64,000 nt of DNA, taken from Heterodontus francisci (Eukaryota). Location of the stretch: NCBI RefSeq assembly GCF_036365525.1, contig NC_090381.1, forward strand, positions 51,985,401-52,049,400, given 5' to 3'. Shown here piece by piece: positions 786 through 62,366 of the stretch. The notes under the pieces are model-generated. The model was not told the origin of the DNA, searched no databases, and worked only from the letters and a program-made list of their open reading frames with translations. Within the stretch, counting starts at the first letter, position 1. Every line of letters starts with the position of its first letter. The position numbers and the translations under genes were made by a program.

Positions 786-2496
786 AGGTCGTCATGGTCC
801 ATGTTGGTACCAACGACATAGGCAGGATAAGGAAAGAGGTTCTGCATAGTCAGTATGAGGAATTAGGCACTAAATTATGAAACAGAACAGCAAAGGTAAT
901 AATCTCTGGATTATTACCTGAGCCACTTGCAAACTGACATATGGCAAATAAGATTAGAGAAATTAATGCGTGGCTCAAAGGCTGGTGTGGTCGAAATGGG
1001 TTCCGGTTCATGGGGTACTGGCACCAGTACTGGGGAAAGTGGTGACTGTACCGTTGGGAGGGACTACACCTGAACCATGCTGGGGCCAGTGTTCTAGCGA
1101 GCCATATAACTAGGGAAGGGGAGAGGGTTTTAAACTGAATAGTGGGGACAAGGGATCAAATTGGGAAGATATGGTAAATCAAGGAGTAGAGACAAGGTAA
1201 GAGAGGAAGGTATTAATATGGGAAATGATAAACAGACTATGACAGGAAGGGACAGAGTGTACAAATCTCAGAGTAAATCAATAGCTAAGGCTAGTGGTTA
1301 CAAAAATAATAAAAGGACAAAACTAAAGGCTCTGCATCTGAATGCCACAGCATTCAAAACAAACAGATGAACTGAGAATGCAAATAGAAATAAATATGTA
1401 CAGTCTGATAGCCATTGCAGAGACATGGTGGCAGGATGACAATGGATTGGGACCTGAATATTGAAGGGTACATGGCTTTTAGGAAGGATAGGAAGCTAGG
1501 AAAAGGTGGAGGGGTGGCTCTGTTAATTATTGATGGTATTAGCGCAATAGAGAGGGATGACCTAAGTTCAGGAGACCAGGATGTAGAAGCAGTTTGGGTA
1601 GAGATGAGAAATCATAAAGACAAGAAATCACTTGTGGGAGTGATGTACAGGGCACTGAACATTTATCACACTGTAGGGCGGGTTATAAAGGAAGAAATAA
1701 TGGCAGCCTGTCAGAAAGGTACAGCGATAATCATGGGGGATTTTAACCTACATACAGACCGGAAAAATTAGATGGGCAGAGGTAGCCTAGATGAGGAGTA
1801 CATAGAATGTTTTTAGGATAATTTCTTAGAACAGGACGTTCTGGAGACAACAAGAGAATAGGCTATACTAGACCTGGTATTGTACAACGAGATAGGATTA
1901 ATTAATGACCTTATAGTTAAGGCGCCCCTAGGTAGCAGCGATCATAATATGATTGAAGTTTACATTCAGTTTGAGGGAGAGAAGAGTGGGTCCAAGACCA
2001 ATATTTTAAACTTAAATAAGGGCAATTATGAGAGCATGAAAGCAGAGCTAGTTAAAGTAAACTGGCAAATTAGGTTTAGGGATAGGTCAGTAGAGATGCA
2101 GTGCTTGACATTTAAGGGGATATTTCAGAATACACAGCATTCCAATGAGAAAGAAAAATTCCAAAGGGGGACCCACCATCCGTGGTTAACTGAAGCAGTT
2201 AAGGATAATATTAAACTTAAAGAAAAGAATATAATTGCACAAAGATGGGTGGCAGGTCAGAAGATTGAACAGAATATAAAAAAACAGCAAAGATTGACTA
2301 AAAAATTGATAAGAAAGGTAAAATTAGAGTATGAGAGTAAGCTAGCTAGAAATATAAAGACAGATAATAAGAGTTGGTCCTATAGAAAGTGAGTCTGGGG
2401 AACTGATAATGGATAATAAGCAGATGCAGATGAATTGAAGAGGTATTTTGCATCGGTTTTCACTATCGAGGATATAAGTAACATCCCAGAATTAGC

Positions 2497-2722
2497 CACC
2501 AAAATAAAAGCAAAATGCTGCAGATGCTGGAAATCTGAAATAAAAACAAGAAATGCTGGAAATACTCAGCAGGTCTGGCCGCATCTGTGGAGAGAGAAGC
2601 AGAGTTAACGTTTCAGACACTGACCCTTCATCAGAACCATCACTGATCTGAAACGTTAACTCTGCTTCTCCCTCCACAGATGCTGGCAGACCTGCTGAGT
2701 ATTTCCAGCATTTCTTGTTTTT
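2497..2722. mobile_element. Penelope-derived fold-back (inverted-repeat) element with hammerhead motif
   Basis: Arms ~2540-2620 and ~2641-2724 are reverse complements and match the PLE 3' end at 48210-48306. TSD ATCCCAGAATTAGC (2483-2496) / ATCCGAGAATTAGC (2723-2736), 13/14 match. Confidence 0.85.
2601..2638 (-). ncRNA. Minimal type-I hammerhead ribozyme-like motif
   Basis: Minus strand GGTT-CTGATGA-A-GGGTCAGTGTCT-GAAAC-GTT-AACTCT: canonical CUGAUGA and GAAA boxes, degenerate stem II. Confidence 0.55.
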
Positions 2723-3567
2723 ATCCGAGAATTAGCTGCAGGTCAGGAAATGGAAGGGAGGGAGGAATTCAAGAAAATTGCAATCACCGGGAATGTGGTA
2801 CTGAACAAATTGTTGGAGCTGCAGGCTGACAAGTCCCCAGATCCTGTTGGACTTCATCCTAGGGTCTTAAAAGAAGTGGCTAGTAAGATCGTTGAGGCAT
2901 TAGTTTTAATTTTCCAAAATTCCCTAAATTCAGGAAAGGTTCGCTAGACTGGAAAACAGTGAATGTAACTCCTTTATTCAAAAAGGGAGGAAGACAGAAA
3001 GCAGGAAACTAAAGGCCAGTTAGCTTAACATCTGTCTTAGGGAAAATGTGAGAAGCTATTATTAAAGACGTTATAGCAGGGCACTTAGAAAAATTCAAGG
3101 TAATCAGGCAGAGTCAACATGGATTTGTTAAAGGGAAATCATGTTTAACCAATTTATTAGAGTTCTTTGAGGGAGTTACATGTGCTGTGGATGAAGGGGA
3201 ACCAGTGGATGTACTGTACTTAGATTTCCAGAAGGCATTTGATAAGGTGCCACATCAAAGGTTATTGCAGAAAATAAAAGCTTATGGTATAGGGGGTAAC
3301 ATATTGGCATGGATAGAAGATTGGCTAGCTAACAGGAAACAGAAAGTAGGCATAAATGGATCATTTTCTGGTGGCAGGATGTAACGAGTGGTGTGCCACA
3401 GAGATTAGTGCTGGGGCATCAACTTTTTACAATTTATATAAATGACTTAGATGAAGGTACCAAAGGTATAGTTGCTAAGTTTGCTGATGACACAAAGATA
3501 GGCAGGAATGTAGGTTGTGAAGAGGACATAAGGAGGCTACAAAGTGGTATGGATAGGTTAAGTGAGT

Positions 3568-9109: not shown

Positions 9110-10170
9110 TCATGGACTGCTCATTTGAAGTGAAGGGGTCTGGCACATCTCCTCCCTTCCTCCTCCTCCTCTTCTTCCTCCACATGAGGTGGCCTGGTGG
9201 GGAGAGTACACCCTTATGAAAGTAAGGTTATGGAGCACACAGCAGACTACCACGAACTTGGAGACACGCGCCAAGGAGTACTGGAGGGCTCTCCCCATGC
9301 CACCCAGGCAGCAGAACCACTGCTCCAGCACACAAATTGTTTGCTCCAAGACTTTCCTGATGGCTGCATGGCTTTCATTGTAGGTACGTTGTCTATGTGT
9401 GTTCATGTGGAGGGCAGCCATGAGCCAGGAGTAAAACAGATATCCCTTGTCATCCATGAGCCAGCTTCTTGTTCTTTGTGGTGGGCCAAAGATGGCGGTT
9501 TCAGATGACTGGGACAGGATGAATGCATCATGGCTACTGCCAGCATAGCAGGCATTCATTGAGAGGATCATCTGGGCACGGTCGCAAACCAACCGGATAT
9601 TAATAGAGTAGTAGCTCTTGTTGTTACAGAACATCTCCCCATCAACTTGTGGGGTTCGCAGAGCCATGTGCGTGCAGTCGATTGCACCCTGCACCTTTGG
9701 GAATCCCGTCAGCCTGGCAAATCCCCCTGCTCTCTCCTCCTGCTCTCCCCCTGCTCCTCTCAGCTCAGTGAATGATGATGAATTCTCCTCTGCTTCTGCA
9801 CAGGGTCTATGTTATCTCACTGATGCAGCGATGGATAACGAAGTGCAAGATGTTGCTAATGTCACCTGCTCCTACCTGAAAGCAGCCACTAGCATGAAAA
9901 TTGAGGGCAACAGTGGCCTTGACAGCCACTGGCAGCACCATCCTCACCCTGCTGTGAGACTGTAGGTCAGGGGTTAGAGATGGCACAGTTCAGTCACCAC
10001 ATCCTTATGGAAATGCAGACGCCTCAGACACTGCTCCTGGCTGAGGTGGAGGTTGGAGCAATGCTGCCTAAAGACCCTTGGTGGGTAGGGCCTTCTATTG
10101 AGAGTCCTCTTGCTCCTACCTCTGCACATAGCTTTTCCTCTTTGCTGCCTGTGCTCCATTTCCAAAACAT
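9110..10170 (-). pseudogene. Harbinger (HARBI1-like DDE) transposase pseudogene
   Basis: RRPYPPRVFR..LSQEQCLRRLHF; GAIDCTHMAL; YSINIRLVCD; YAGSSHDAFIL; WLMDDKGY; YNESH..VLEQTICVLEQWF; VVVCCVLHN. Frameshifted. Confidence 0.88.
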
Positions 10171-12359: not shown

Positions 12360-14940
12360 GGGCTGCATTTCATAAGAAGGCCACAGGTCCTGGTGGCAGT
12401 GCCAGAAGCAGGAATCGCTTCCAATCAGGCATCCAGCTGCCAGCCGAACGCGATCACGCGGCAGCCAGTCAATTAAATTAGGGGAGGTGCGAAGCCCATC
12501 TAATTAAGGAGCAGAGGTAGGAAATGAGGTGTCGTGGCAGCATCAGCCGACTCAACGGCAGGTGCTGGCACTATAGTTAAAGGGCTGCCAGCCCTGCATT
12601 CATTGCTACCGGGTTTAAAGGAGTGGCTTCTGACTGTCCTGAGGACCCCTCCTGCTGCCTAACTACAGCTGAAACCCAAGGAGCTGAACAGGATCCCATA
12701 GTGACCAGGGCAGAAGGAAAACACCGGGCGACCCCACAGTTTAGTGTGCTTCCCTGCAGGTTCTCCCCCAGGCCCAAAAAGATGGGGAAAAGAGACTGGC
12801 CTGGCCGACCAAGCAAGCCTGGATGGAGATTGCAGAGGTGGAGTGCACCCTCCCCCCAAACCTGGGTGCACTGCTGCAAACGCATCACTGACCTCCTTTG
12901 CTCTGGAAAGGTAAGTCCTCCATAGCACTTTCTTCTTTGGGGCTTACAATTAGCAATGTGAGAAGGTACATTTGGTGGAGAGGGAGTGACCACCCAGTCA
13001 GTGGCAAGGGGTCAGGAAGCAGCATATCCCGTCAGAGGCATGGCTGCATCGCGATAAGAGGCATCTGTCTGTCATTGATAACACCCACAAGGTCCCTCAA
13101 CAGCGGCTGTATGGAGGAGAATTCATGTGCTCCATCATGGACCGTGGGCTGCCACTAGCATAAGTGTTGTGCTGGACATCATGGGGAAACTAACCGTGTT
13201 CCTCCTTGTGCTCACAGGAGAAATGGGCACACAACTGCAGGGAAAGGGCCAAGACCACTGGATGGGTTCCAGACCTGCATATTCTGACCCCAAAGGAAGA
13301 GGGGACCTTGGAACTAGCTGGTTCACAGAGCAGCCATACAATTACTGATAGTGAAACAGGAGTGGCATCACAGCAGAGTGAGTGAACGAGTGCAGGGGCA
13401 CAAGGGTGCATCTGGCCCACACATGAGGCATAGTGTTCATGTGTCCACCACTGGACACATGGAGCTCCACATCAGGCATAGTTGGGATGAGGAACTGGGA
13501 AGTCCTTAACCCATCAATGTTTGTGTTGTCTCATGCAGGTCAAGGTCATCCCAAAGGACGTGGAGCTCGAAAGACCAGAGGCCAGCTGGCCACCTCTTAG
13601 GAAGAGGTGAAGGAACATCTGGCAGAGATTCTAGTGGCTATGCGCAGCCATGTGTGGACGATGGCAGAGTTCTACCATGTCTCTGGTGTGTGCGCGCATG
13701 GCTTCCTCCATGGAGACACTGGCAACCCTCATGGAGAGCCACATCCAGCAGACCACTCACTATCACCTCGTCCATGAACTCTCTGCAGCAGTGGCAAGGT
13801 GAGAGGAGGACGAGGCGCCTAGAGTCTCCACCAGGTCCTCGTCCTTCTCAGATCAGCAGGGAAGTATGCCTTGCAAGGGAGGAAGACAACTGCTTTCTAC
13901 TTCTGAGGGCTCCTCACAGGACGCTCCAAGTGTGGACAGTGGCTCTTCAGCCCCTCTGCCGGTGACCCCAGAGCTTCCAGTAGCTGGGATGACAGAAGCA
14001 GGAGCCCTTCAGTATGCCAGGGCCCTTCGAGCCTCAGGCAGCCAGAGGACAGCCGCCAAGATCATTCCAAACCATGGGGTAGCCCAATCAGCAGACTGCC
14101 TCCATGTTAGCTGCAAGCACTTGCAAGAGAGTTAAGAAGAGCACCTAGCAGCACTTGGCATTCATGGGAGTTTAGATTTTGTACATGTGAAGGCTTGATA
14201 ATATTGTGTCGCTCAATAAATGTTTGACTCACTGCTGTTGGTCATACTTTCAAATCTTGCTGCCTTGTTAGATCTGATCTACAGCCTTGCTCCCTCAGTG
14301 AGCTGCTAGTGTTGGAGTAGGCCACATCTGGTCAGCTCCTCAGCTTTGCCAACGTGTGCTGTGAATCTGGGTGCTGGATGATGGATTGAGAGATGAAGGA
14401 GGCCACAGCCGATGCAGATAACATTCAGGCTTTAATGAACTGCTTGTGAAAGGGCATCAGGTTCACAACAGATAGCTATGAATGAGATCGTCCTGAGCCT
14501 CCCTTGCGTGTCTCTCATTTCCCCTTGCCTCTGGTCTAGTGGGCGGAATTTTATGCACCACCCCACTCCCCCCACAACCCCAGGAGTGGGAGTGGATCGA
14601 GTGGGAAGCAGGGGGCTGCCGTTCCCATTGCCCACCCGCTCCTGTTGGTGCTGCTGAGACTGAAGAGCTGCTGGCCCGCTGATTGGCCGGCAGCTCTTGG
14701 AGGTGGGGCTTCCTGCCTCAGAGTGGTGGATGTCCCGACCAATTAAGGGCCTGGTCCACATAAAATTACGGTGTGGCTTCCAGGCCCGGCGGAGGTGGGC
14801 TCTTCCCTGACGTTTTAGCCAGTGGGCGGGGCCACTGCCACGACATAAAATTCCAGCCAAAGGGTCCTCATCCTGTGCCCTCTACTTAGCAGCCTCTTCC
14901 ACATCCTCATCGTAGGCGATTGATGATGTTCTTATTCTTC
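12360..14940. mobile_element. Decayed Harbinger transposon (Myb remnant on +, probable transposase tail on -)
   Basis: TIR-like gggctgcattt at 12360. Frameshifted GKHRATPQFS..TKQAWMEIAEV..TWVHCCKRITDLL followed by donor gtaagt (12911). Confidence 0.6.
14541..14858. mobile_element. Harbinger-type MITE
   Basis: Terminal inverted repeats gggcggaattttatg ... cataaaattccagcc. Interior resembles the reverse complement of the 5' part of 19442 and 40073. Confidence 0.7.
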
Positions 14941-18295: not shown

Positions 18296-18756
18296 ACAGT
18301 GCTAGAAATTGGGAAAGTCCTTGAAAAGTAGAATTCAAAATCTATTCGGTCAGAATTAAGAAACAATAAAAGTAACTATTACATCACTTTGTGTATTTTA
18401 TAGGTCATCAATAGTGGGAAGGAGATAGAGCAGCAGATATGCTAAGAAACTACTGAGACATGCAAGAGCTCTATAGTGATAATGGGAGATTTTTAGTGCC
18501 ACATTCAGTATTGGGGTAGTTATAGTGTTAAAGGTAGAGAAGGGGAGGAATTTCTGAAGTGTGTTCAGGAGTATTTTCTTGATCGTTATGTTTCCTGTCA
18601 AACGAGGAAGGTGGCATTGCTGGATCTAGTCCTGGGGAATGAAGTACTACAAGTGGGGGAAGCTCAGAAAATGCTGGAAATCTGAAATAAAAACAGACAA
18701 AGCTGGAAATACTGAGCAGGTCTGGCAGCACCTGTGGAGAGAGAAACAGTGTTAAC

Positions 18757-19400
18757 AGGTTGGATTTTCTGAGGACCATGGGGTCGAAACCCGGTGCGGA
18801 TGCCATTTGAAAATCATGGCCCCGGAGGCCATCTCAGGATCCTGGTACCTCCAGGGCAGTTTCAAATTTTAAAAGTGTTGATGGCGGGGAGGGAACAGGG
18901 AACAAGCAGAGCACTACCTAACAGCCTATTAATCTCCTTTAGGAGCTTAAGGGGCCAGCACCTTTGGGAAAGCAATTTTTAAATCTGATTTTGGCAATCC
19001 TGTCCAGTCTGGTGCACATTAGTGCACAGCTGTGGGGGTCGCCACAGGGCAAAAGAAAGATTGTTTCTATCTATTTTGAAATGAAATTTGAGGGGCCAAC
19101 TAGCACGGCGTCAAAGGCAGTACCTCTGCTTGGCGTCTATGGCCACTTTCCACTGTCCTTATCGTCCTGGCCCTTTCATGAGCTGCCTGCTCTCCTCGGC
19201 AAGGCAGCAGCAGCCCAACATGCCTGTTGCCTGCCTTTGCTGCTGGCACCAGGCAGGCAGCTCCCACTTCCTGGAGGCACTCAGTGCCTCTAATTTAGCA
19301 CCGAGCTCGCCTCCTTCCCAATTAGGGCAATTGCATTCAATGAACACGTCGCAAGAACAACGCACCTGAAGCTCAGTGTCAGGACCCGGAATTCATCAGG
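18757..19400. mobile_element. Probable Harbinger-type MITE
   Basis: Starts with TIR-like aggttggatttt; GC-rich; interrupts the fold-back element. Confidence 0.45.
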
Positions 19401-19441
19401 AGAGTTCTGATGAAAGGTCACAGACCTGAAATTTTAACTCT
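19401..19441 (+). ncRNA. Minimal type-I hammerhead ribozyme-like motif (stem III decayed)
   Basis: AGAGTT-CTGATGA-A-AGGTC-ACA-GACCT-GAAA-TTTT-AACTCT: perfect 6-bp stem I and 5-bp stem II. The ACGT of stem III is mutated. Confidence 0.6.
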
Positions 19442-20180
19442 GGCTGGAATTTAACCCTAGGCGGACAGGAGCCGGCTACTGACTGAAAAGTCGGCAGCGC
19501 ACCTTGCCTGGGGATCTGACCAGTATTTTGCAGGTTGCCGGGCTTTAATTGTTGTGAGGCAGGACTTCCACCCGCTTGAGGTAGGAAATCCTGCCGAACA
19601 GAACTGCCGGCCAATCAGCGGGCCAGCAGCACCACCGGGAGAGGTGGCAACTGCTGGGACTACAGCCCGGCTTGAAGAAGATGAGGTTGGGAGCACGGAA
19701 CAAAGGCAAGTTTTGGTTGCCTCGCTGGGCGTAATCGGTCAGGCCCCAGCAAGGCAAAGGTGGTCGATTGGGGAGACGGGGGGGGGGGGGGCGCAGTTGG
19801 GAGTATTTGGGGCAGCAGGGGCAGCCCTCCATCGGGCACAGGGTGCCCGATCATGAGGGTCCCCCCCCCCAAGCCATCAGAGAGCCGCCTGCTTTTGTCA
19901 GGTGGCTTCTCTTGGGCCTCGGCCGCCTGACCAGCCATGGGTAAAATCCCCGTGGAGGCGGGCAAAGGCCCTTAAGTGGGCATTAAGTGTCCACTTAAGG
20001 GCCTTGATTGGCCTGGGGTGGACAGGCCATTTTCCGCCGCTGCCACCCTGCGTAAAGTGGCAGCAGAGGCGGCAGTGGGTCTGGAAGGGTTCCAGCAGCC
20101 TCCCACTTCATTTTACGCCACTCCCCACCTTGCCACCACCGCCACCATCCTGCTCCTTGCGGGTGTGTAAAATTCAGTCA
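19442..20180. mobile_element. Harbinger-type MITE (~740 bp)
   Basis: TIRs ggctggaattta / gtaaaattcagtca; 3-bp TSD TCT (19439-19441, 20181-20183); collinear with 40073-40803. Confidence 0.8.
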
Positions 20181-22410
20181 TCTGTTTTTCTTTTCATAGA
20201 CCTGCTAGGTATTTTCAGTATTGTCATTTTTTTATTTGAGGAATCTCACAGTTGGGGAGATCTCAGGAATAGTGCTCATAATAGTCTAAGGTTTAGATGA
20301 GGTATGAGAAAAGTCAAGGCACAAGCTAATTTCAGTGAATCAAGGAGGGATCTGGCACAGGAAAAACTGGAGGCAACGCCTGGTACGTAATAATGTAACG
20401 GAGCAATAGGTGACCTTTAAAGAGAGATGCAACACAGTCTAGCTGCATTCTCACAAGAAGGAAAGGGAGGGCAAACAAATCCAGAGCTACCTGGATGACA
20501 AAAGAGGTAGAGATTAAGATAAAGAAGAAAAAGTGTGCTTATGACAGATGCCAGGTAGAAAATACAATTGAGAACCAGGCTGAATACAAAAGGTCCAGAG
20601 GGGAAGTGAAAAAGCAAATAAGAGATGCAAAGAGAGAGCATGAAAAGAGACTGGCAGCTAGCATTAAAGGAAATCCCAAAGTTAAAGGGTGTAAAAGGAG
20701 GAGTGGGGCCGATTAGGCACCAGAAAGGAGATTTACACATGGAGGCAGAGGGCATAGCTGAGGTATTACATAAATACTTTGCATCTGTCTTTACCAAGGA
20801 AGAAGATGCAACTCAGGCAATGGTGAAAAAGGAGGTAAGTCAGACACTAGAGGGGTTTAAAATTGATAAAGAGGATGTATTAGATAGGCTGTCTGTACTT
20901 AAAGTGGATAAAGCACCAGCACCAGATGAGATGCATTCAAGGATACTGAGGGCAGTGACGGTGGAAATCGCAGAGGCACTGGCCATAATTTTGCAGCATT
21001 CCTTAGCCTTGGGGATGGTGCCAGAGGACTGGAAAATTGCAAATGTTACACCTTTGTTCAAAAAAGGGTGTAAAGTTAAGCCCAACAACTACAGGCCAGT
21101 CAGTTTAACTTCGGTGGTGGGGAAACATCTAGAAAAAATAATTCGGGACAAAATTAATAGTCACTTGGACAAATGCAGGTTAATTAAGGAAAGCCAGCAT
21201 GGATTTCTTAAGGGAAAATCATGTTTAACTAACTCGCTGGAGTTTTTTGAGGAGGTAACAGAGAGGGTTGATGCAGGCAATGCTGTTGATGTGGTGTACA
21301 TGGACTTTCAAAAGGCATTTGATAGCATGGATATGGGAGTTGGCTGAGTGACAGGAAACAAAGAGTAGTGGTTAATGGATGTTTTTCAGGCTGGAGGAAG
21401 GTTTGTAGTGGAGTTCCCCAGGGGTCAGTATTTGGACCCTTGCTTTTTCTGATATATATTAATGAGCTAGACCTTGGTGTACAGGGCACAATTTCAAAGT
21501 TTGCACATGATACAAAACTTGGAAGCATTGTGAACTGTGAGGAGGATCATGTAGAACTTCAAAAGGACATAAACAAGTTGGTGGAATGGGCAGACACGTG
21601 GCAGATGTAATTCAATGCAAAGAAATGTGAAGTGATTCATTTGGGTAGGAAGAACATGGAGTGACAATATAAAATAAAGGGTACAATTCTAAAGGGGGTG
21701 CAGGAGCAGAGGGACCTGGGTGTATATGTGCATAAGTCATTGAAGGTGGCAGGACAGGTTGAGAGAGCGGTTAATAAAGCGTACAATATTCTGGGCTTTA
21801 TTAATAGGGGCATAGAGTACAAGAGCAAAGAGGTTATGTTGAAGTTGTATAAGACACTATTTCGGCCTCAGCTGGAGTACTGCGTCAGGTTCTGGGCACC
21901 ACACTTCAGGAAAGACGTGGAGAGAGTACAGAAAAGATTCACGAGAATGGTTCCAGGGATGAGGAACTTCAGTTATGAAGATAGATTGGAGATGTTAGGA
22001 CTGTTTTCCTTTGAGCAGAGAAGGCTAACAGATGATTTGATAGAGGTATTCAAAATCTTGAGGGGTCTGGACAAGTAGACAGAGAGAAATTGCTCTCACT
22101 TGTGAAAGGAGTGAAAACGAGAGGGCACAGATTTAAAGTAAGAGAAGCAAAAGTGACATAAGGAAAAACTTTTTCACGCAGACAGTGGTTAAGGTCTGGA
22201 ATGCGCTGCCTGAGCGTGTGGTGGAGGCAGGTTCAACTGAAGCATTCAAAAGGAAATTAGACTGTTTTATGAAAAGGAAGAATGTGCAGGGTTACGGGGA
22301 GAGGCGGGGGAATGGAATTGAGTGTATACTCTTTCGGGGAGCCAGTGTGGACATGATGGGCTGAATGGCCTCCTTTTGCACTGTAACAATTCTGTGATTC
22401 TGTGAAATAG

Positions 22411-25199: not shown

Positions 25200-25660
25200 A
25201 AGACCCTAGTTTCATAGTTATCTCAATCACTCTCAGACTCAATATAAAATTCTATCATATTATGATCACTAGAGGCTCCTTTACTACAAGGTTATTAATT
25301 AATCCTCTCTCTTTGCACAATGCAAGGCCTAAAACAGCCTGTTCCCAAATAAAAACAGAAAATCCTGGAAATACTCAGCAGGTCTGGCAGCAATTATGGA
25401 AAGAGAAAGAGAGTTAATCTTTCAGGTTGACGACCTTTTGTCAGAACCCGTTCCAGCATCCACAGTATTTTCCTTTTGTATTAGCCTGATCCCTCGTTGG
25501 TTACTTGACATACTGATCTAGAAAACTATCTTGTATACATTCCATGAACTCGTTCTTCACACTACTGCAAATTTGGTATTCCCAGTCCTCCATGATTACT
25601 GTATTACTCTTATTACATGCACTTCTAATTTCCTGATCTATACTCTACCCAACATTACAG
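25200..25660 (-). mobile_element. CR1 endonuclease fragment
   Basis: Minus strand SFLDQYV..LINNLVVKEPL.SDHNMIEFYI; similar to 36080-36160. Confidence 0.6.
25347..25482. mobile_element. Penelope-derived fold-back element (one arm largely deleted)
   Basis: Arm aaataaaaacagaaaatcctgg..ttgtcagaacc, then the oppositely oriented tail ttccagcatccacagtattttccttttgtatt. TSD AGCCTGTTCCC (25336-25346) / AGCCTGATCCC (25483-25493). Confidence 0.75.
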
Positions 25661-40072: not shown

Positions 40073-40803
40073 GGGCTGAATTTTACCTTAGGCGGACGGG
40101 AATTCGCCACTGATGTGAAAGTCATGGCGAACCCGCTTCCGCCTAGACCAGGGATCCGTCCCATATTTTACGATCCCCGGGCTTCAATTGTCCTGACGTG
40201 GGACCTCCACCCACTTGAGGGAGGAGGTCCCGCATGCGTGAGCTGCCAGCCAATCACTGGGCCAGCAGCTCTTAGTCCCAGCAGCGCCACCAGGAGCGGT
40301 GGCCACTGCTGGGACTGGAGCCCAGCCGACGCCAAGGAGCCTGGAGGGAAGGTAAGTTAAGGTTGCCTCACCGGGGGATCGGTCCTTCCCTGGTGAGGCT
40401 GGAGTGGTCGTTTGAGGGGAGTGGGGCGTCTTGGATTCCGGGGGTGGGTTGGGAGGTAGGGGCGGCCCTCAATCAGGCACCCTGTGCCTGATTGCCATGG
40501 CACCCCCTGGGGTGTGGAAATGCCGGCAGCTATCGCTGGGCGGCCTTTCACGTCCATAGCACGCCCGTTTGCCACGGGTAAAGTAGCCGTGGAGGCGGGC
40601 GAGGGCCCTTAAGAGGCCGTTAAGTGCCCACTTAGGGGCCTTGATTGGCCTCGGGTGGGCGGGCCATTTCCCACCCCTTGCCCGCACCGTAAACTTGGCC
40701 AGAGGCGGAAGCGGGGTGGGTAGGCCTCCCGGAGCCTCCCACTCAATTTTATGCCGCCCCCACACCAGCATCCGACCTACTGGTGCGGCATAAACCTCAG
40801 CCC
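40073..40803. mobile_element. Harbinger-type MITE (~730 bp)
   Basis: TIRs gggctgaattttac / ataaacctcagccc; 3-bp TSD TAT (40070-40072, 40804-40806); non-coding. Confidence 0.85.
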
Positions 40804-45380: not shown

Positions 45381-47286
45381 GGGTTGCAAAGGCAAATAGG
45401 ATGTTAGGGTGTATTACTGGAACAATTCAATCTAAAATAAGAATTTCTTTTCTTTCTCTGTATAAAGTCTTGGTTGGGCCTAATCTAGAAGACTACATCT
45501 AGTTTTGATCCTCATAAATAGTGGGCTACAGGAAAAGGTTCCAATAACAGCTGCCAAATTGATAAGTAGTTTAGATAGGTAGAGAAACTGGAGAGAAGAA
45601 AAAACGAGAGTGAAAACAATACAGACAGGAGGAAGAGAGGAAATGACTCAAATTCAAGTCCAAAGAGAGGGAGAGAAATCTTCCTGCATCAGCAGGAAGA
45701 CGAGAGTGCGACCTTGGAATTTGGGGGCCATCATTTTATTAAAATCAAATCTGATTGTAAATTTTGAAGAGGGGGATGACAGTTTTATCAGGGCATTTAA
45801 ACTGTTAGGTGATCATCATTAAACCGAATGGGCCAGCCAACCTGCGATTTTCATAAGCAGAAGATGCTTTTTTGTTACATTCATCGAACATAGAACATAG
45901 AACAGTACAGCACAGTACAGGCCCTTCGGCCCACAATGTTGTGCCGACCCTTTAACCTACTCTAAGATCACACTACCTGCATACCCTTCATTCTACTATC
46001 ATCCATGTACCTATCTAAGAGTCGCTTAAATGTCCCTAATGTATCTGCTTCTACTACCACCGCTGGCAGTGCATTCCACGCACCCGCCACTCTCTGTGGA
46101 AAGAACCTACCTCTGACATCTCCCCTAAACCTTCCTCCAATCACCTTAAAATTATACCCCTGGTGATAGCCCTTTCCGCCCTGGGAAAAAGTCTCTGGCT
46201 ATCCACTCTATCTATGCCTCTCATCACCTTGTACACCTCTATCAAGTCACCTCTCATCCTTCTTCGCTCCAATGAGAAAAGCCCTAGCTCCCTCAACCTT
46301 TCTTCATGAGACATGCCCTCCAGTCCAGGCAGCATCCTGGTAAATCTCCTCTGCACCCTCTCTAAAGCTTCCACATCCTTCCTATAATGAGGCGACCAGA
46401 ACTGAACACAATATTCCAAGTGTGGTCTAACCAGGGCTTTATAGAGCTGCAGAATAGCCTCGCAGCTCTTAAACTCAATCCCCCTGTTAATGAAAGCCAA
46501 CACACCATACGCCTTCTTAACAACCCTATCAACTTGGGTGGCAACTTTGAGGGGTCTATGGACGTGGACCCCAAGATCCCTCTGTTCCTCCACACTGCCA
46601 ATAATCCTGTCTTTAAGCCTGTATTCTGCATTCAAATTCGACCTTCCAAAATGAATCACTTCACACTTTTCCAGGTTGAACTCCATCTGCCACTTCTCAG
46701 CCCAGCTCTGCATCCTGTCAATGTCCTGTTGCAACCTACAACAGCCCTCCACACTATCCACAACTCCAGCAACCTTTGTGTCATCGGCAAACTTACTAAC
46801 CCAGCCTTCCACTTCCTCATCCAAGTCATTTATAAAAATCACAAAGAGCAGAGGTCCCAGAACAGATCCCTGCAGAACACCACTGTCACCGAGCTCCAGG
46901 CTGAATACTTTCCATCTACTACCACCCTCTGTCTTCTATGGGCCAGCCAATTCTGTATCCAGACAGCCAAATTTCCCTGTATCCCATGCCTCCTTACTTT
47001 CTGAATGAGCCTACCATGGAGAACCTTATCAAACGCCTTGCTAAAATCCATATACACCACATCCACTGCTCTTCCTTCATCAATGTATTTTGTCACATCC
47101 TCAAAGAATTCAATAAGGCTTGTGAGGCATGACCTGCCCCTCACAAAGCCATGCTGACTATCTCTAATCAAACTATGCTTTTCCAAATAATCATAAATCC
47201 TGTCTTTCAGAATCCTCTCCAGTAATTTGCCCACCACCGATGTAAGACTGACTGGTCTGTAATTCCCAGGGTTATCCCTATTCCAC

Positions 47287-47826
47287 TATGCCACTACCAG
47301 TCGCATCTTCCCCTCCCTTCCCCTGTCAGCATTCCGAAGGGATCATTCCCTCCGCGACACCCTGGTCCACTCCTCCATTACCCCCACCACCTCGTCCCCG
47401 TCCCAGGGCACCTTCCCTTGCAATCGCAGGAGGTGTAATACCTGCCCATTTACCTCCTCTCTCCTCACTATCCCAGGCCCCAAACACTCCTTTCAGGTGA
47501 AGCAGCGATTTACTTGTACTTCTTTCAATGTAGTATACTGTATTCGCTGCTCACAGTGTGGTCTCCTCTACATTGGGGAGACCAAGCGCAGACTGGGTGA
47601 CCGCTTTGCGGAACATCTCCGCTCAGTCCGCAAGCAGGACCCTGAGCTTCCGGTTGCTTGCCATTTCAACACTCCCCCCTGCTCTCATGCTCACATCTCT
47701 GTCCTGGGATTGCTGCAGTGTTCCAGTGAACATCAACGCAAGCTCGAGGAACAGCATCTCATCTACCGATTAGGCACACTACAGCCTGCCGGACTGAACA
47801 TTGAGTTCAATAATTTCAGAGCATGA
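47287..47826 (+). CDS. PLE polyprotein C-terminus (Cys-rich linker + GIY-YIG endonuclease), partial
   Basis: Open frame AFRRDHSLRDTLVHS..PCNRRRCNTC..FTCTSFNVVYCIRCSQCGLLYIGETKRRLGDRFAEH..VACHFN..LEEQHLIYRLGTLQPAGLN*. No start codon (truncated). Confidence 0.9.
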   Translation, partial: YATTSRIFPSLPLSAFRRDHSLRDTLVHSSITPTTSSPSQGTFPCNRRRCNTCPFTSSLLTIPGPKHSFQVKQRFTCTSFNVVYCIRCSQCGLLYIGETKRRLGDRFAEHLRSVRKQDPELPVACHFNTPPCSHAHISVLGLLQCSSEHQRKLEEQHLIYRLGTLQPAGLNIEFNNFRA

Positions 47827-48208
47827 CAGCCCCCCACTTTACTTTCATTTTTAGTCATTTTTAGTTATTTTTTCTTCCTTTTTTTTTTGCATTCCTTTTT
47901 ACATTTTTAACAATCTTTTTTTGCATTTATTTCATTTCATCTTAGTTTGTTCAGTTTGCTTACCCACTGTTTTTTTCAGGTTGTTTTTCTTCAGGTTTGC
48001 ACTTGCTGATGTTCAATATTCAGTATATTCACACCTAATCTGTACTAATGCTTTGTCTTTCAACACAGCATTAACATATTGTTTGCCTTTGCTCCGTGAC
48101 CTTTTGGTCAGCTATGTGGCCTGGTCCAATCTGCACCTTCTCCTTTGTTATCTCTTGCCCAACCCCCACCTCACTTGTTTATAATCTGTGACTTTTCTAA
48201 TATTTGTC

Positions 48209-48245
48209 AGTTCCGAAGAAGAGTCACTGACCCGAAACGTTAACT
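48209..48245 (+). ncRNA. Minimal hammerhead ribozyme-like motif in PLE terminal repeat
   Basis: AGTT-CCGAAGA-A-GAGTCACTGACCC-GAAAC-GTT-AACT; U4-to-C core variant; palindromic ACGT stem III. Confidence 0.55.
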
Positions 48246-49885
48246 CTGCTTCTCTTTCCACAGATGCTGCCAGACCTGCTGAGTGAATCCAGCATTTCTT
48301 GTTTTTGTTATCCCTATTCCCTTTCTTGAACAAGGGAATAACATTTGCCACCCTCCAATCATCTGGTACTATTCCAGTGGACAGTGAGGACGCAAAGATC
48401 ATCGCCAAAGGCGCGGCAATCTCTTCCCTCGCTTCCCGTAATAACCTTGGGTATATCCCGTCTGGACCCAGGGACTTATCTATCCTCATGTCTTTCAAAA
48501 TTTCCAGCACATCCTCCTTCTTAACATCAACCTGTTCGAGCATATCAGCCTGTTTCACGCTGTCCTCACAAACAACAAGGTCCCTCTCACTAGTGAATAC
48601 TGAAGCAAAGTATTCATTAAGGACCTCCCCTACCTCCTCCGACTCCAGGCACAAGTTCCCTCCACTATCCCTGATCGGCCCTACCCTCACTCTGGCCATC
48701 CTCTTGTTCCTCACATCAGTGTAGAACGCCTTGGGATTTTCCTTAATCCGACCCGCCAAGACTTTTTCATGTCCCCTTCTAGCTCTCCTAAGTCCATTCT
48801 TCAGTTCCTTCCTGGCTACCTTGTAACCCTCTAGAGCCCTGTCTGATCCTTGCTTCCTCAACCTTAAGTAAGCGTCCTTCTTCCTCTTGACTAGCTGTTC
48901 CACATCTCTTGACATCCAAGGTTCCTTCACCCTACCATCCCTTCCTTGCCTCATCGGGACAAACCTATCCAGCAGTCACAGCAAGTGCTCCCTAAACAAC
49001 CTCCACATTTCTGCCGTGCATTTCCCTGAGATCATCTGTTCCCAATTTAAGCTCCCCAGTTCCTGCCTAATAGCATTGTAATTCCCCCTCCCCCAATTAA
49101 ATATTTTCCCATCCCGTCTGCTCCTATCCCTCTCCATGACTATAGTAAAGGTCAGGGAGTTGTGATCACGATCACCGAAATGCTCTCCCACCGAGAGATC
49201 TGCCACCTGGCCTGGTTCGTTGCCAAGCATCAAATCCAACATAGCCTCCCCTCTAGTCGGCCTATCTACATATTGAATCAGGAAACCTTCCTGGACACAC
49301 CTGACAAAATCTGCTCCATCCAAACTATTTGCACTAAGGAGGTGCCAATCAATATTAGGGAAGTTGAAGTCACCCATGACAACAACCCTGTTACCTCTGC
49401 ACCTTTCCAAAATCTGCCTCCCAATCTGTTCCTCCATGTCTCTGTTGCTATTGGGGGGTCGATAGAAAACTCCCAATAAAGTGACTGCTCCTTTCCTGTT
49501 TCTGACTTCCACCCATACTGACTCAGTAGACAAACCCTCCTCGACGACCTCCCTTTCTGCAGCTGTGATACTATCCCTGATTAGCAATGCCACTCCCCCA
49601 CCTCTTTTACCTCCCTCCCTATTCCTTTTGAAACATCTAAACCCCGGAACATCCAACATCCATTCCTGCCCCTGTGATATCCAAGTCTCCGTAATGGCCA
49701 CAACATTCCTTCAGGTAGTCTGGACTATGATGTTGGAAAGCATGCTGTTTTCAGGGCTTTCAATTTAATAGCTGAAGCATACAGACATAAATTTAAGAAA
49801 CAAATGAAGAATGCATTCAGAAATGATTATTCAGCTTGAAGACGCATGGCAGATATGCTTGTAAGCAAAAGATATAAAAGGCTAT

Positions 49886-51039: not shown

Positions 51040-52551
51040 TTCTTTGGCCTCCTTATCTCGAGAGACAATGGGTAAGCGCCTGGAGGTGGTCAGTGGTGTG
51101 TGGAGCAGCGCCTGGAGTGGCTATACAGGCCAATTCTAGAGTGACAGGCTCTTCCACAGGTGCTGCAGAAAAATTTGTTTGTCAGGGCTGTTACACAGTT
51201 GGCTCTCCCCTTGCGCTTCTCTCTTTTTTCCTGCCAACTGCTATGTCTCTTCGACTCGCCACACTTTAGCCCCGCCTTTATGGCTGCCCGCCAGCTCTGG
51301 CGAACGCTGGCAACTGACTCCCATGACTTGTGATCAATGTCACAGGACTTCATGTCGCGTTTGCAGACGTCTTTAAATCGGAGACATGGATGGCCGGTGG
51401 GTCTGATACCAGTGGCGAGCTCGCTGTACAATGTGTCTTTGGGGATCCTGCCATCTTCCATGCGGCTCACATGGCCAAGCCATCTCAAGCGCCGCTGCCT
51501 CAGTAGTGTGTAAGCTGGGGATGTTGGCCGCCTCGAGGACTTCTGTGTTGGAGATACGGTCCTGCCACCTGATGCCAAGTATTCTCTGGAGGCAGCGAAG
51601 ATGGAATGAATTGAGACGTCGCTCTTGGCTGACATACGTTGTCCAGGCCTCGCTACCATAGAGCAAGGTACTGAGGACACAGGCTTGATACACTCGGACT
51701 TTTGTGTTCCGTGTCAGTGCGCCATTTTCCCACACTCTCTTGGCCAGTCTGGACATAGCAGTGGAAGCCTTTCCCACGCGCTTGTTGATTTCTGCATCGA
51801 GAGACAGGTTACTGGTGATAGTTGAGCCTAGGTAGGTGAACTCTTGAACCACTTCCAGAGCGTGGTCGCCAATATTGATGGATGGAGCATTTCTGACGTC
51901 CTGCCCCATGATGTTCGTTTTCTTGAGGCTGATGGTTAGGCCAAATTCTTTGCAGGCAGCCGCAAACCTGTCAATGAGACTCTGCAGGCACTCTTCAGTG
52001 TGAGATGTTAAAGCAGCATCGTCAGCAAAGAGGAGTTCCCTGATGAGGACTTTCCGTACTTTGGACTTCGCTCTTAGACGGGCAAGGTTGAACAACCTGC
52101 CACCTGATCTTGTGTGGAGGAAAATTCCTTCTTCAGAAGACTTGAACGCATATGAAAGCAGCAGGGAAAAGAAAATCCCAGAAAGTGTGGGTGTGAGAAC
52201 ACAGCCCTGTTTCACACCACTCAGGATAGGAAAGGGCTCTGATGAGGTGCCGCCATGTTGAATTGTGCCTTTCATATTGTCATGGAATGAGGTGATGATA
52301 CTTAGTAGCTTTGGTGGACATCCAATCTTTTCCAGTAGTCTGAAGAGACCACGTCTGCTGACGAGGTCAAAGGCTTTGGTGAGATCAATGAAAGCAATGT
52401 AGAGGGGCATCTGTTGTTCGTGGCATTTCTCCTATATATGACGAAGGGAGAACAGCATGTCAACGGTCGAGTCACTCTAAACAGGCTCCATAAGCTGGCC
52501 GAGCGCGTCTACCCTGAGGCACAGTGTGGCTTTCGTGCAGAGAGATCGACC
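51040..52551 (-). mobile_element. RTE-clade LINE, 5'-truncated with 5' inversion
   Basis: AFIDLTKAFDLVSR, GVKQGCVL, LLFADDAAL, FTYLGS, RRLRWLGHVSRM, C-terminal CSTCGRACHSRIGLYSHSRRC. One frameshift (~51505) and one stop (~52432). TSD GTTTTAAATG (51030-51039, 52552-52561). Confidence 0.93.
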
Positions 52552-55791: not shown

Positions 55792-55978
55792 GGCAGCAAA
55801 GCAGAAAGTGCTGGGGAAACTCAGCAGGTCAAGCAGCATCTGTGGAGAGAGAATGCCAGCCACTGAGCTACATGAGCCACCTTTCAGGTCTGTGAACTTG
55901 GATAAGTTAACTCTGCTTCTCTCTCCACTGATGCTGCCTGACCTGCTGGATTTCTGCAGAACTTTCTGCTTTGCTGCC
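55792..55978. mobile_element. Penelope-derived fold-back element with a 30-bp locally templated patch
   Basis: ggcagcaaagcagaaagt..tgtggagagaga is the reverse complement of tctctctccactg..actttctgctttgctgcc; 55852-55881 is identical to 54921-54950. Confidence 0.72.
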
Positions 55979-61828: not shown

Positions 61829-61935
61829 CAATTATCATTGCTTTTTGGCACCTGATTTCAACACTAACCTCAAATTTTCTGCCAAGTCTTTTAGTTTATT
61901 CTTAGTTAAAGTTGTCAAGTCACTGAGGGACACAT

Positions 61936-62168
61936 AATAAAAGCAAAATACTGCGGATGCTGGAAATCTGAAATAAAAACAAGAAATGCTGGAACCACTC
62001 AGCAGGTCTGGCAGCATCTGTGGAAAGAGAAGCAGAGTTAACGTTTCGGGTCAGTGACCCTTCTGCGGTTCCGAAGAAGGGTCACTGACCCGAAACATTA
62101 ACTCTGCTTCTCTTTCCACAGATGCTGCCAGACCTGCTGAGTGGTTCCAGCATTTCTTGTTTTTATTA
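61936..62168. mobile_element. Young Penelope-derived fold-back element
   Basis: 97-nt arms 61972-62068 / 62071-62167 with 2 mismatches and a 2-nt spacer; 36-nt extra tail 61936-61971; perfect 16-bp TSD TCACTGAGGGACACAT (61920-61935, 62169-62184). Confidence 0.92.
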
Positions 62169-62366
62169 TCACTGAGGGACACATTCTCTTTTCTCAGAAA
62201 CTCTGCTGCAACTACTAATGCCATTCACATGATACACCATTTACCCTTAAATACAAGAAGCCTGGTTCCTTTTATTTTTTAGCTTTCAAATTATTACTCT
62301 CACTTATAATTCACGTAATTGGTGTTGGATTTGGATTGGATCCTGGACAATTGAGCAATAAATATG

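Follow-up and report, generated by a model that had tools for sequence, protein, structure and literature searches.

The window analysed here, a 64,000-nucleotide stretch of Heterodontus francisci contig NC_090381.1, holds five short inserts related to the end of a Penelope-like element (PLE) that lies in the same window, and one of them, at 61936-62168, is a long inverted repeat between target site duplications (TSDs). Signed positions refer to the PLE, with +1 being the A at window 48209, the base that precedes the hammerhead-like motif of the window PLE. The features are as follows.

2483..2736: older-subfamily hairpin (2497-2722) with its TSDs; tailed arm to +2, untailed arm from about +16
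18665..20238: old copy with two interruptions; arm at 18665-18756, junction at about 19390-19442, the rest near 20190-20238
25336..25493: untailed inverted arm (25347-25448, to +2) and tail-only stub (25451-25482), span with TSDs
47285..48306, + strand: young single-armed PLE copy, 5'-truncated; GIY-YIG part to 47826, 3' UTR, arm from +1 to +98/+101, no tail
48178..48212, + strand: predicted core promoter; TATA-like word at about -30, initiator-like TCAGTT around +1 (48209)
55792..55978: diverged inverted pair whose centre is not a hammerhead
61920..61935, + strand: left TSD of the 62-kb hairpin, 16 bp, exact repeat of 62169-62184
61936..62067, - strand: inverted tailed arm, PLE positions about +137 down to +6, with its tail at 61936-61971
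62068..62168, + strand: direct untailed arm, +2 to about +100
62068..62102, + strand: minimal hammerhead-like motif (CCGAAGA core, stem II GGGTC/GACCC, GAAA), assigned from the sequence, the fold and the features described in PMC4209133
62169..62184, + strand: right TSD of the 62-kb hairpin, 16 bp

A BLAST search of 61901-62200 against the window recovered all five inserts and the PLE end, in agreement with the original prediction, which had described 61936-62168 as the PLE end at 48210-48306 repeated in inverted orientation and had related the other inserts to that end. It had also given a 97-bp hairpin with two mismatches; the mismatch count was right and the length too great, with 94 pairs measured in the stem (61972-62167) around a 4-nt loop. 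As RNA this stem has a minimum free energy of -186.7 kcal/mol (z -26.9). The loop is the sense-strand GTTC, which is supplied by the right arm only, and the arms are unequal, with a tail of ~36 nt on the left arm that both the right arm and the window PLE lack.

Neither arm contains a consensus hammerhead core. The right arm reads CCGAAGA, stem II and GAAAC-ATT, the left arm reads CCGCAGA and lacks the 5' strand of helix I, and both have changes beyond a CCGA core. The motif at 62068..62102, with predicted cleavage after 62099, is non-consensus and buried in duplex, and by the fold model a transcript of this copy would lock both motifs inside the -186.7 kcal/mol structure. An Rfam scan of the window returned 13 matches with no hammerhead family among them; the matches to miRNA families scored below the gathering threshold and reflect the hairpin shape. 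Single arms folded alone gave no stable hammerhead monomer (z about 0), as is expected for dimer-type motifs, and PLE hammerhead variants are said in one study to cleave as dimers.

The long TSDs that had been claimed for three of the inserts and for the PLE were confirmed: 16 bp and exact at 62 kb, 14 bp with one mismatch at 2.5 kb (2483-2496 and 2723-2736), 11 bp with one mismatch at 25.3 kb, where one arm is joined to a tail-only stub of ~30 nt, and 14 bp and exact around the PLE (47271-47284 and 48307-48320). No credible TSD was found at 18.7 kb (best flanking repeat 9 bp with one mismatch) or at 55.8 kb (7 bp). The 18.7-kb copy is interrupted by a GC-rich repeat (19443-20180) that is related to 40074-40763 and 14613-14736 and has an internal inverted repeat near 19965-20005. 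Elsewhere in the window, a 233-aa open frame at 9113-9811 (- strand) holds a motif that we take to be that of Harbinger-type transposases, and fragments at 46144-49710 and 51093-52431 (both - strand) are presumably LINEs, apparently of different types; the PLE copy sits inside the former.

The parent element

The coding part of the window PLE matches the Pfam GIY-YIG domain at E 2.7e-4, slightly short of the curated cut-off, and the fragment has 40 scored relatives at 98-100% identity. The layout of the whole element was read from locus L061 (loci are cited by such labels), a partial tandem with a period of 3,305 bp, the length of one unit, in which the order is motif, untailed end, tail, ORF, 3' UTR and motif again. 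Since the tail lies between the untailed end and the ORF, the 36 extra nucleotides of the tailed arms are the PLE tail; in the anole Poseidon element, PMC11167929 places the tail between two internal start sites of reverse transcriptase (RT). A single ORF combines an RT (RVT_1 E 7e-6, below the curated cut-off, with DKG and YIDD motifs) with a C-terminal GIY-YIG domain, as in EN+ PLEs, whose endonuclease carries a CCHH motif, and partial tandems that form pseudo-LTRs (pLTRs) are present, with an upstream partial copy at 29/30 loci that contain the ORF start. Two cysteines stand between the GIY and YIG parts, and the copies read are frameshifted. Upstream of the endonuclease core is a C-x4-C-x2-C linker, which has the CX2-5CxxC form described for Neptune and Nematis and, together with the cysteine-bearing GIY-YIG domain, places the element with one of these two by the definitions of PMC8557442. 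Judged by its sequence, then, this is a young, 3.3-kb PLE of the Neptune/Nematis type.

PLE copies have the minimal-hammerhead layout of a helix II, a palindrome at the helix III position and a short helix I. The core reads CUGA in 19 of 33 aligned copies and CCGA in 14, the latter including all of the youngest; the window PLE (48213-48219) and other young copies carry CCGA versus CUGA in older ones, and the youngest subfamily has nonetheless amplified to tens of thousands of copies. Hammerhead cleavage in the CCGA subfamily may be weak or dispensable.

Pairing of the arms and their junctions

Hairpins were sampled with a junction-blind probe, a mid-arm 32-mer with 50,742 exact matches in the genome, of which the first 100 listed were used. 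These correspond to the first 12 Mb of one contig and form the young blind sample; the DNA around 99/100 arms was fetched, the match C1:8647990 not being fetched with its own region. Three rows were removed before counting, namely the overlapping L236 and L255 and L244, a duplicate of L243 (one solo stub and its flanks occur twice, identically but in reverse orientation, at a distance of about 280 kb, which marks a local inverted duplication). Centre lengths were judged from the spacing among the first 100 listed matches, which include 13 close inverted pairs, spaced by 77 to 186 nt; the 116-nt spacing of the window hairpin is absent among these 13.

The blind sample contains 29 adjacent head-to-head pairs, and 24 of them lie between TSDs, which measure 11-16 bp and in 16 cases 14 bp. 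TSDs, whose lack in most copies the original prediction had named as evidence against it, are therefore the rule. In 24/24 TSD-bounded pairs one arm is tailed and the other untailed (p 1e-7 against 0.5), and each of these loci shows the inverted 5'-truncated copy, one-end tail and TSD that characterize EN+ PLE insertions. The 3' ends of the arms fall into two classes, from about +94 to +105 for untailed and from +133 to +145 for tailed arms. Within these 24 the pairing holds from inserts of about 150 bp up to 3 kb. A further seven kilobase-scale two-armed loci (L062-L066, L077 and L079) follow it too, and at L067 and L078 a kilobase-long tailed arm is joined to a stub that starts at +2 or -2. 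Among the five pairs without a TSD, L265 has one arm of each class, L234 and L247 have a cut arm, and the rule is broken in two, L235 (short/short) and L264a (tail/tail), which both look disrupted.

That the hairpin is a non-autonomous family, similar to retrozymes or SINEs, which moves as a unit by means of PLE enzymes was part of the original prediction, and several observations lean that way. The window hairpin has 40 near-identical full-length matches in the genome, and among the 30 best matches 24 have one junction geometry and 28 have TSDs of at least 10 bp. The 40 matches were, however, selected by the query, and the impression of a fixed junction came from that bias, as seen from the junction-blind sample, where the window junction occurs in 0/29 pairs, and from its exact count of 161 copies genome-wide, or roughly 2% of the ~6,600 young hairpins estimated. 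These copies carry three different alleles at +78/+79, with no fixed difference between left and right arms, and the combination of three alleles with so few exact copies indicates that this junction formed repeatedly. Other recurring junctions (L266 and L299, L274 and L302, L261 and L272a) lie on microhomologies within the palindromes of the motif itself. Only L290 and L306, at about 11.89 and 9.97 Mb, share a junction with a 3-nt filler together with a rare variant while differing in TSD and target; this filler junction has 2 copies genome-wide, and a completed hairpin may occasionally have been copied or converted. Given that junctions vary, that both ends vary like primed ends and coincide with PLE priming ends, and that the architecture continues into kilobase-long insertions, it is very unlikely that the hairpins move as a unit. 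Nor do they consist of direct tandem units with a complete hammerhead in each, as non-LTR retrozymes do in the available part of bioRxiv 10.64898/2026.07.22.740005; they are inverted pairs in which one motif is truncated. The derivation of the hairpins from a PLE terminus by the PLE RT and GIY-YIG endonuclease, anew at each insertion, was the other part of that prediction, and it is supported by the variable junctions and the PLE priming ends.

The variants that were thought to be private to the two arms of a copy are subfamily alleles: GT at +78/+79, for example, occurs in both arms of 16/54 pairs. Arms nevertheless agree more often than by chance at these positions, in 18/24 blind pairs (permutation mean 7.4; L264a was left out of this test), in 29/30 query-selected pairs and in 47/54 overall. 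Rare variants are found in both arms in 5 cases versus 0.5 expected, and in one arm only in 60. The TSD-bounded L223:1373-2990 has one private joint, linking mid-ORF (near unit position 1,340) to +1, that is present in each of its two arms; its long arm has its own end at +1/-1. Tail-only partners occur in the 25.3-kb copy of the window, at L272 and at L298. Taken together, the agreement of the arms, the L223 joint and the tail-only partners fit two primers on one RNA or on RNAs from one source locus. An origin from a single template is not universal, as 6/24 blind pairs are discordant at +78/+79; these pairs and the 60 one-arm variants mean that some pairs had two templates or mutated later. 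In five long pairs (L254, L293, L310, L062 and L079) the two arms have their ends far upstream of +1 and no more than about 55 nt apart, as though a single broken RNA had been copied to its end by each.

Shared alleles, near-equal arm lengths in these same five long pairs, and junctions that lie in or beside the motif and are often centred on its palindromes (L266, L299, L247, L292) could also speak for the remaining proposal, in which the folded hammerhead halts RT and the cDNA then turns back on itself as its own template, a scheme related to the self-priming model of PMC3846280. The reach of the arms argues against it. In 14 of the 24 TSD pairs it is the untailed arm that reaches further 5', in 6 the tailed arm, and in 4 the two are equal; a copy cannot hold sequence that is absent from its template, so that snap-back copying is excluded for the 14, in which neither arm is a copy of the other. 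The GTTC loop of the window hairpin, in coming from the right arm only, speaks in the same direction. With the location of the stops, set out below, these data make stalling and fold-back at the ribozyme highly improbable.

The 5' limit of the arms

Among 98 arms, 51 start between -3 and +19, with a pile-up from -3 to +3 and a shoulder to +19. Of 64 arms that reach +3, 23 end within -3..+3 (6% per nt), and of the 41 that pass this zone only 7 end in the next 197 nt (0.09% per nt). Arms starting within 3 nt of the predicted cleavage product at +34 numbered 0/98. Exact counts genome-wide also step down across +1, from 30,662 (+2..+30) to 15,843 (-17..+13). The prediction that the fold-back point lies in or next to the hammerhead thus holds for the 5' edge of the motif; it does not hold for the cleavage site, and the point varies between copies. 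Stops at this far edge, rather than on the 3' side or at the cleavage site, are contrary to stalling at the ribozyme.

Copies that contain the ORF start behave differently. In 29/30 of them the sequence continues upstream through +1 into the partial copy, the sole copy starting at +1 being the rearranged L223. A first passage stops at +1 in 19/60 cases and continues in 41, versus 1/30 and 29/30 for a second passage (Fisher p 0.002; L241 was assigned by hand to the continuing class, and one L272 arm to -3). The motif as such does not stop RT, given this read-through, which also weighs against fold-back at a stalled RT. Two further arms were recorded. In the one at L272:4956-5057, precisely the three bases that precede the predicted cleavage site of the hammerhead are missing. 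In the other, at L296:68-421, a tailed arm that ends at +2 runs on, without a change of orientation, into a segment from inside the ORF, which resembles a template jump at the end of an RNA.

A TATA-like word at ~-30 and a pyrimidine-AGTT at +1 persist in the alignment of 33 copies (71-99% identity), and the available passages of PMC3846280 report a TATA box plus initiator in rotifer pLTRs. The motifs around +1 are as expected for a core promoter, a function that we infer from sequence. Where the base before +1 is non-native (14 arms), it is an additional G in 7 (p 0.05), which hints weakly at cap copying; the sample used for this count and for upstream exons was not blind, and about 6/53 of its rows scored as starting here were misfiled continuing copies, set aside by eye.

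The hairpins could also form de novo from two primers with a different meaning of +1, as a 3' splice site or as a protein or structure boundary that stops a newly started RT, or with the arms coming from two RNAs on an asymmetric dimer. A CTAA-pyrimidine-AG at window 48194-48210, just upstream of +2, is conserved across the 33 copies, including subfamilies with as little as 71% identity. The motif looks like a branch point with its 3' splice site, and would be unexplained if +1 is a transcription start; in D. virilis the 5' end of helix I is where the intron stops (PMC4209133). Discordant alleles in 6/24 pairs and the joining of a long arm to a +2/-2 stub at L067 and L078 also speak for such variants. 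They are countered by the lack of a common upstream exon among about 47 arms starting at +3..-4, of any stop at the putative branch A near -10, and of a GT-AG joint to +3 among the subset of joints examined in public contigs, and by read-through in 29/30 second passages. The public contigs yielded neither start sites nor strand information nor a usable editing signal; most are RNA by guess only, their RNA or DNA origin being uncertain. One contig joint, from +3 to the ORF end, was considered as a splice and rejected, as there is no GT, the letters between are unknown and the length fits a diverged 3' UTR. Overall, we regard these variants as rather unlikely.

Formation, abundance and known systems

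Together these data suggest that the hairpins are probably the shortest head-to-head PLE insertions, formed anew at insertion when both target strands prime at two internal sites, with both copies probably running off the 5' end of the RNA. The insertions carry ~14-bp TSDs, and the two classes of arm 3' ends would match the pair of RT start sites that PMC11167929 places on either side of the tail. At each of these sites a dimeric enzyme would prime from one of the two target strands, in most cases with a single RNA as template for both (twin priming), and the trailing copy would either stop at the leading site, leaving a tail-only arm, or displace the leading copy. The 5' pile-up would be the RNA 5' end, that is the transcription start, and the arms run-off cDNAs primed in the 5' repeat copy. 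The two cDNA ends would then be trimmed and joined, often through microhomology in the short palindromes of the hammerhead, which would be why the hairpin centre looks as if built from a hammerhead. The ribozyme would thus be a passenger in hairpin formation.

A more tentative extension, which we hold as possible, has a dimeric RT twin-priming one RNA at the tail-bounding sites on templates from two pools, the hairpins being a genomic record of PLE replication. Linear transcripts that stay uncut, with priming close to the capped 5' end, would yield strong-stop-like stubs and hairpins ending at +1, and long and more-than-unit copies would come from templates without a 5' end at +1, most simply hammerhead-cut circles, which PMC4209133 proposes. 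Two pools would explain why about one-third of first passages end at +1 versus 1/30 of second passages.

Abundance was estimated from 12 blind-picked 100-kb blocks (1.2 Mb), which contain 92 arm clusters and about 16 close inverted pairs. Extrapolated to the 6.0-Gb genome, this gives about 460,000 arm loci and about 80,000 hairpins in total; the figure of ~6,600 young hairpins is likewise an extrapolation. The density of five per 64 kb that the window suggested was overstated, the blocks giving about one sixth. Judged from their sequence, the hairpins could supply dsRNA of ~95 bp when transcribed by read-through. The family is ordinary in kind, its many copies being a footprint already known from PLEs, and its value lies in the data that it provides on how PLE tandem and inverted structures form, an open question in the available portions of PMC8557442 and PMC11167929. 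The pairing rule, the tail-only partners and a +1 stop in first but not second passages yield sharp predictions for the existing in vitro system, and together they lend indirect support to a non-linear template.

In L1 twin priming, two primers on one RNA give an inversion joined by microhomology, which the hairpins resemble, and retroviral strong-stop DNA, a short cDNA that runs off the RNA 5' end, resembles the arms. The two cDNAs of L1 do not overlap; the PLE cDNAs here do, and would need strand displacement or a second RNA. A literature search found no account of PLE twin priming or strong-stop products, nor of this hairpin family, and the family may already be in the repeat libraries Dfam and Repbase, which lay outside that search.

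The hairpin architecture itself, with inverted copy, single tail, TSD and junction palindromes, is already published for PLEs. The available passages on complex insertions of EN+ PLEs (Arkhipova 2013, PMC3846280; Craig 2021, PMC8557442) describe an inverted 5'-truncated copy adjoining the 5' end with a TSD, a tail of 30-40 bp at one end only, a palindrome at the inverted junction, and TATA plus an Inr-like motif in the pLTR. What differs here is that the arms are often only ~100-137 nt with a sharp common 5' limit; the strict pairing of one tailed with one untailed arm and the contrast between first and second passages were likewise not met in those passages. Self-priming, as proposed in the available part of Arkhipova 2013, is contradicted by most pairs here.

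The minimal PLE hammerheads of PMC4209133 are similar in lacking helix III, in the palindromic 15.2-16.2 region, in the extra nucleotide before helix II and in being mostly solitary, and differ from the young subfamily here, which has CCGA for CUGA. Dual minimal hammerheads 100-700 bp apart on opposite strands were noted in Schistosoma in 2014 (PMC4209133). Non-LTR retrozymes, in the available part of bioRxiv 10.64898/2026.07.22.740005, are also short, non-coding, hammerhead-bearing and derived from PLE pLTRs, but are direct tandem repeats with a complete hammerhead per unit, whereas the arms here are paired in inverted orientation, their motifs are broken or buried, and their junctions vary. 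The Anolis Poseidon element (Frangieh 2024) has, in the available text of PMC11167929, two adjacent internal RT start sites bounding the tail, cutting and extension of both strands, a predicted dimer and uncut RNA as the main substrate, and Fig. S2 of that paper may show the same 5' step. It belongs to the Poseidon clade and was studied in vitro, and run-off stubs or hairpins are not described in that text, whereas the element here has the CX4CxxC linker of Neptune/Nematis.
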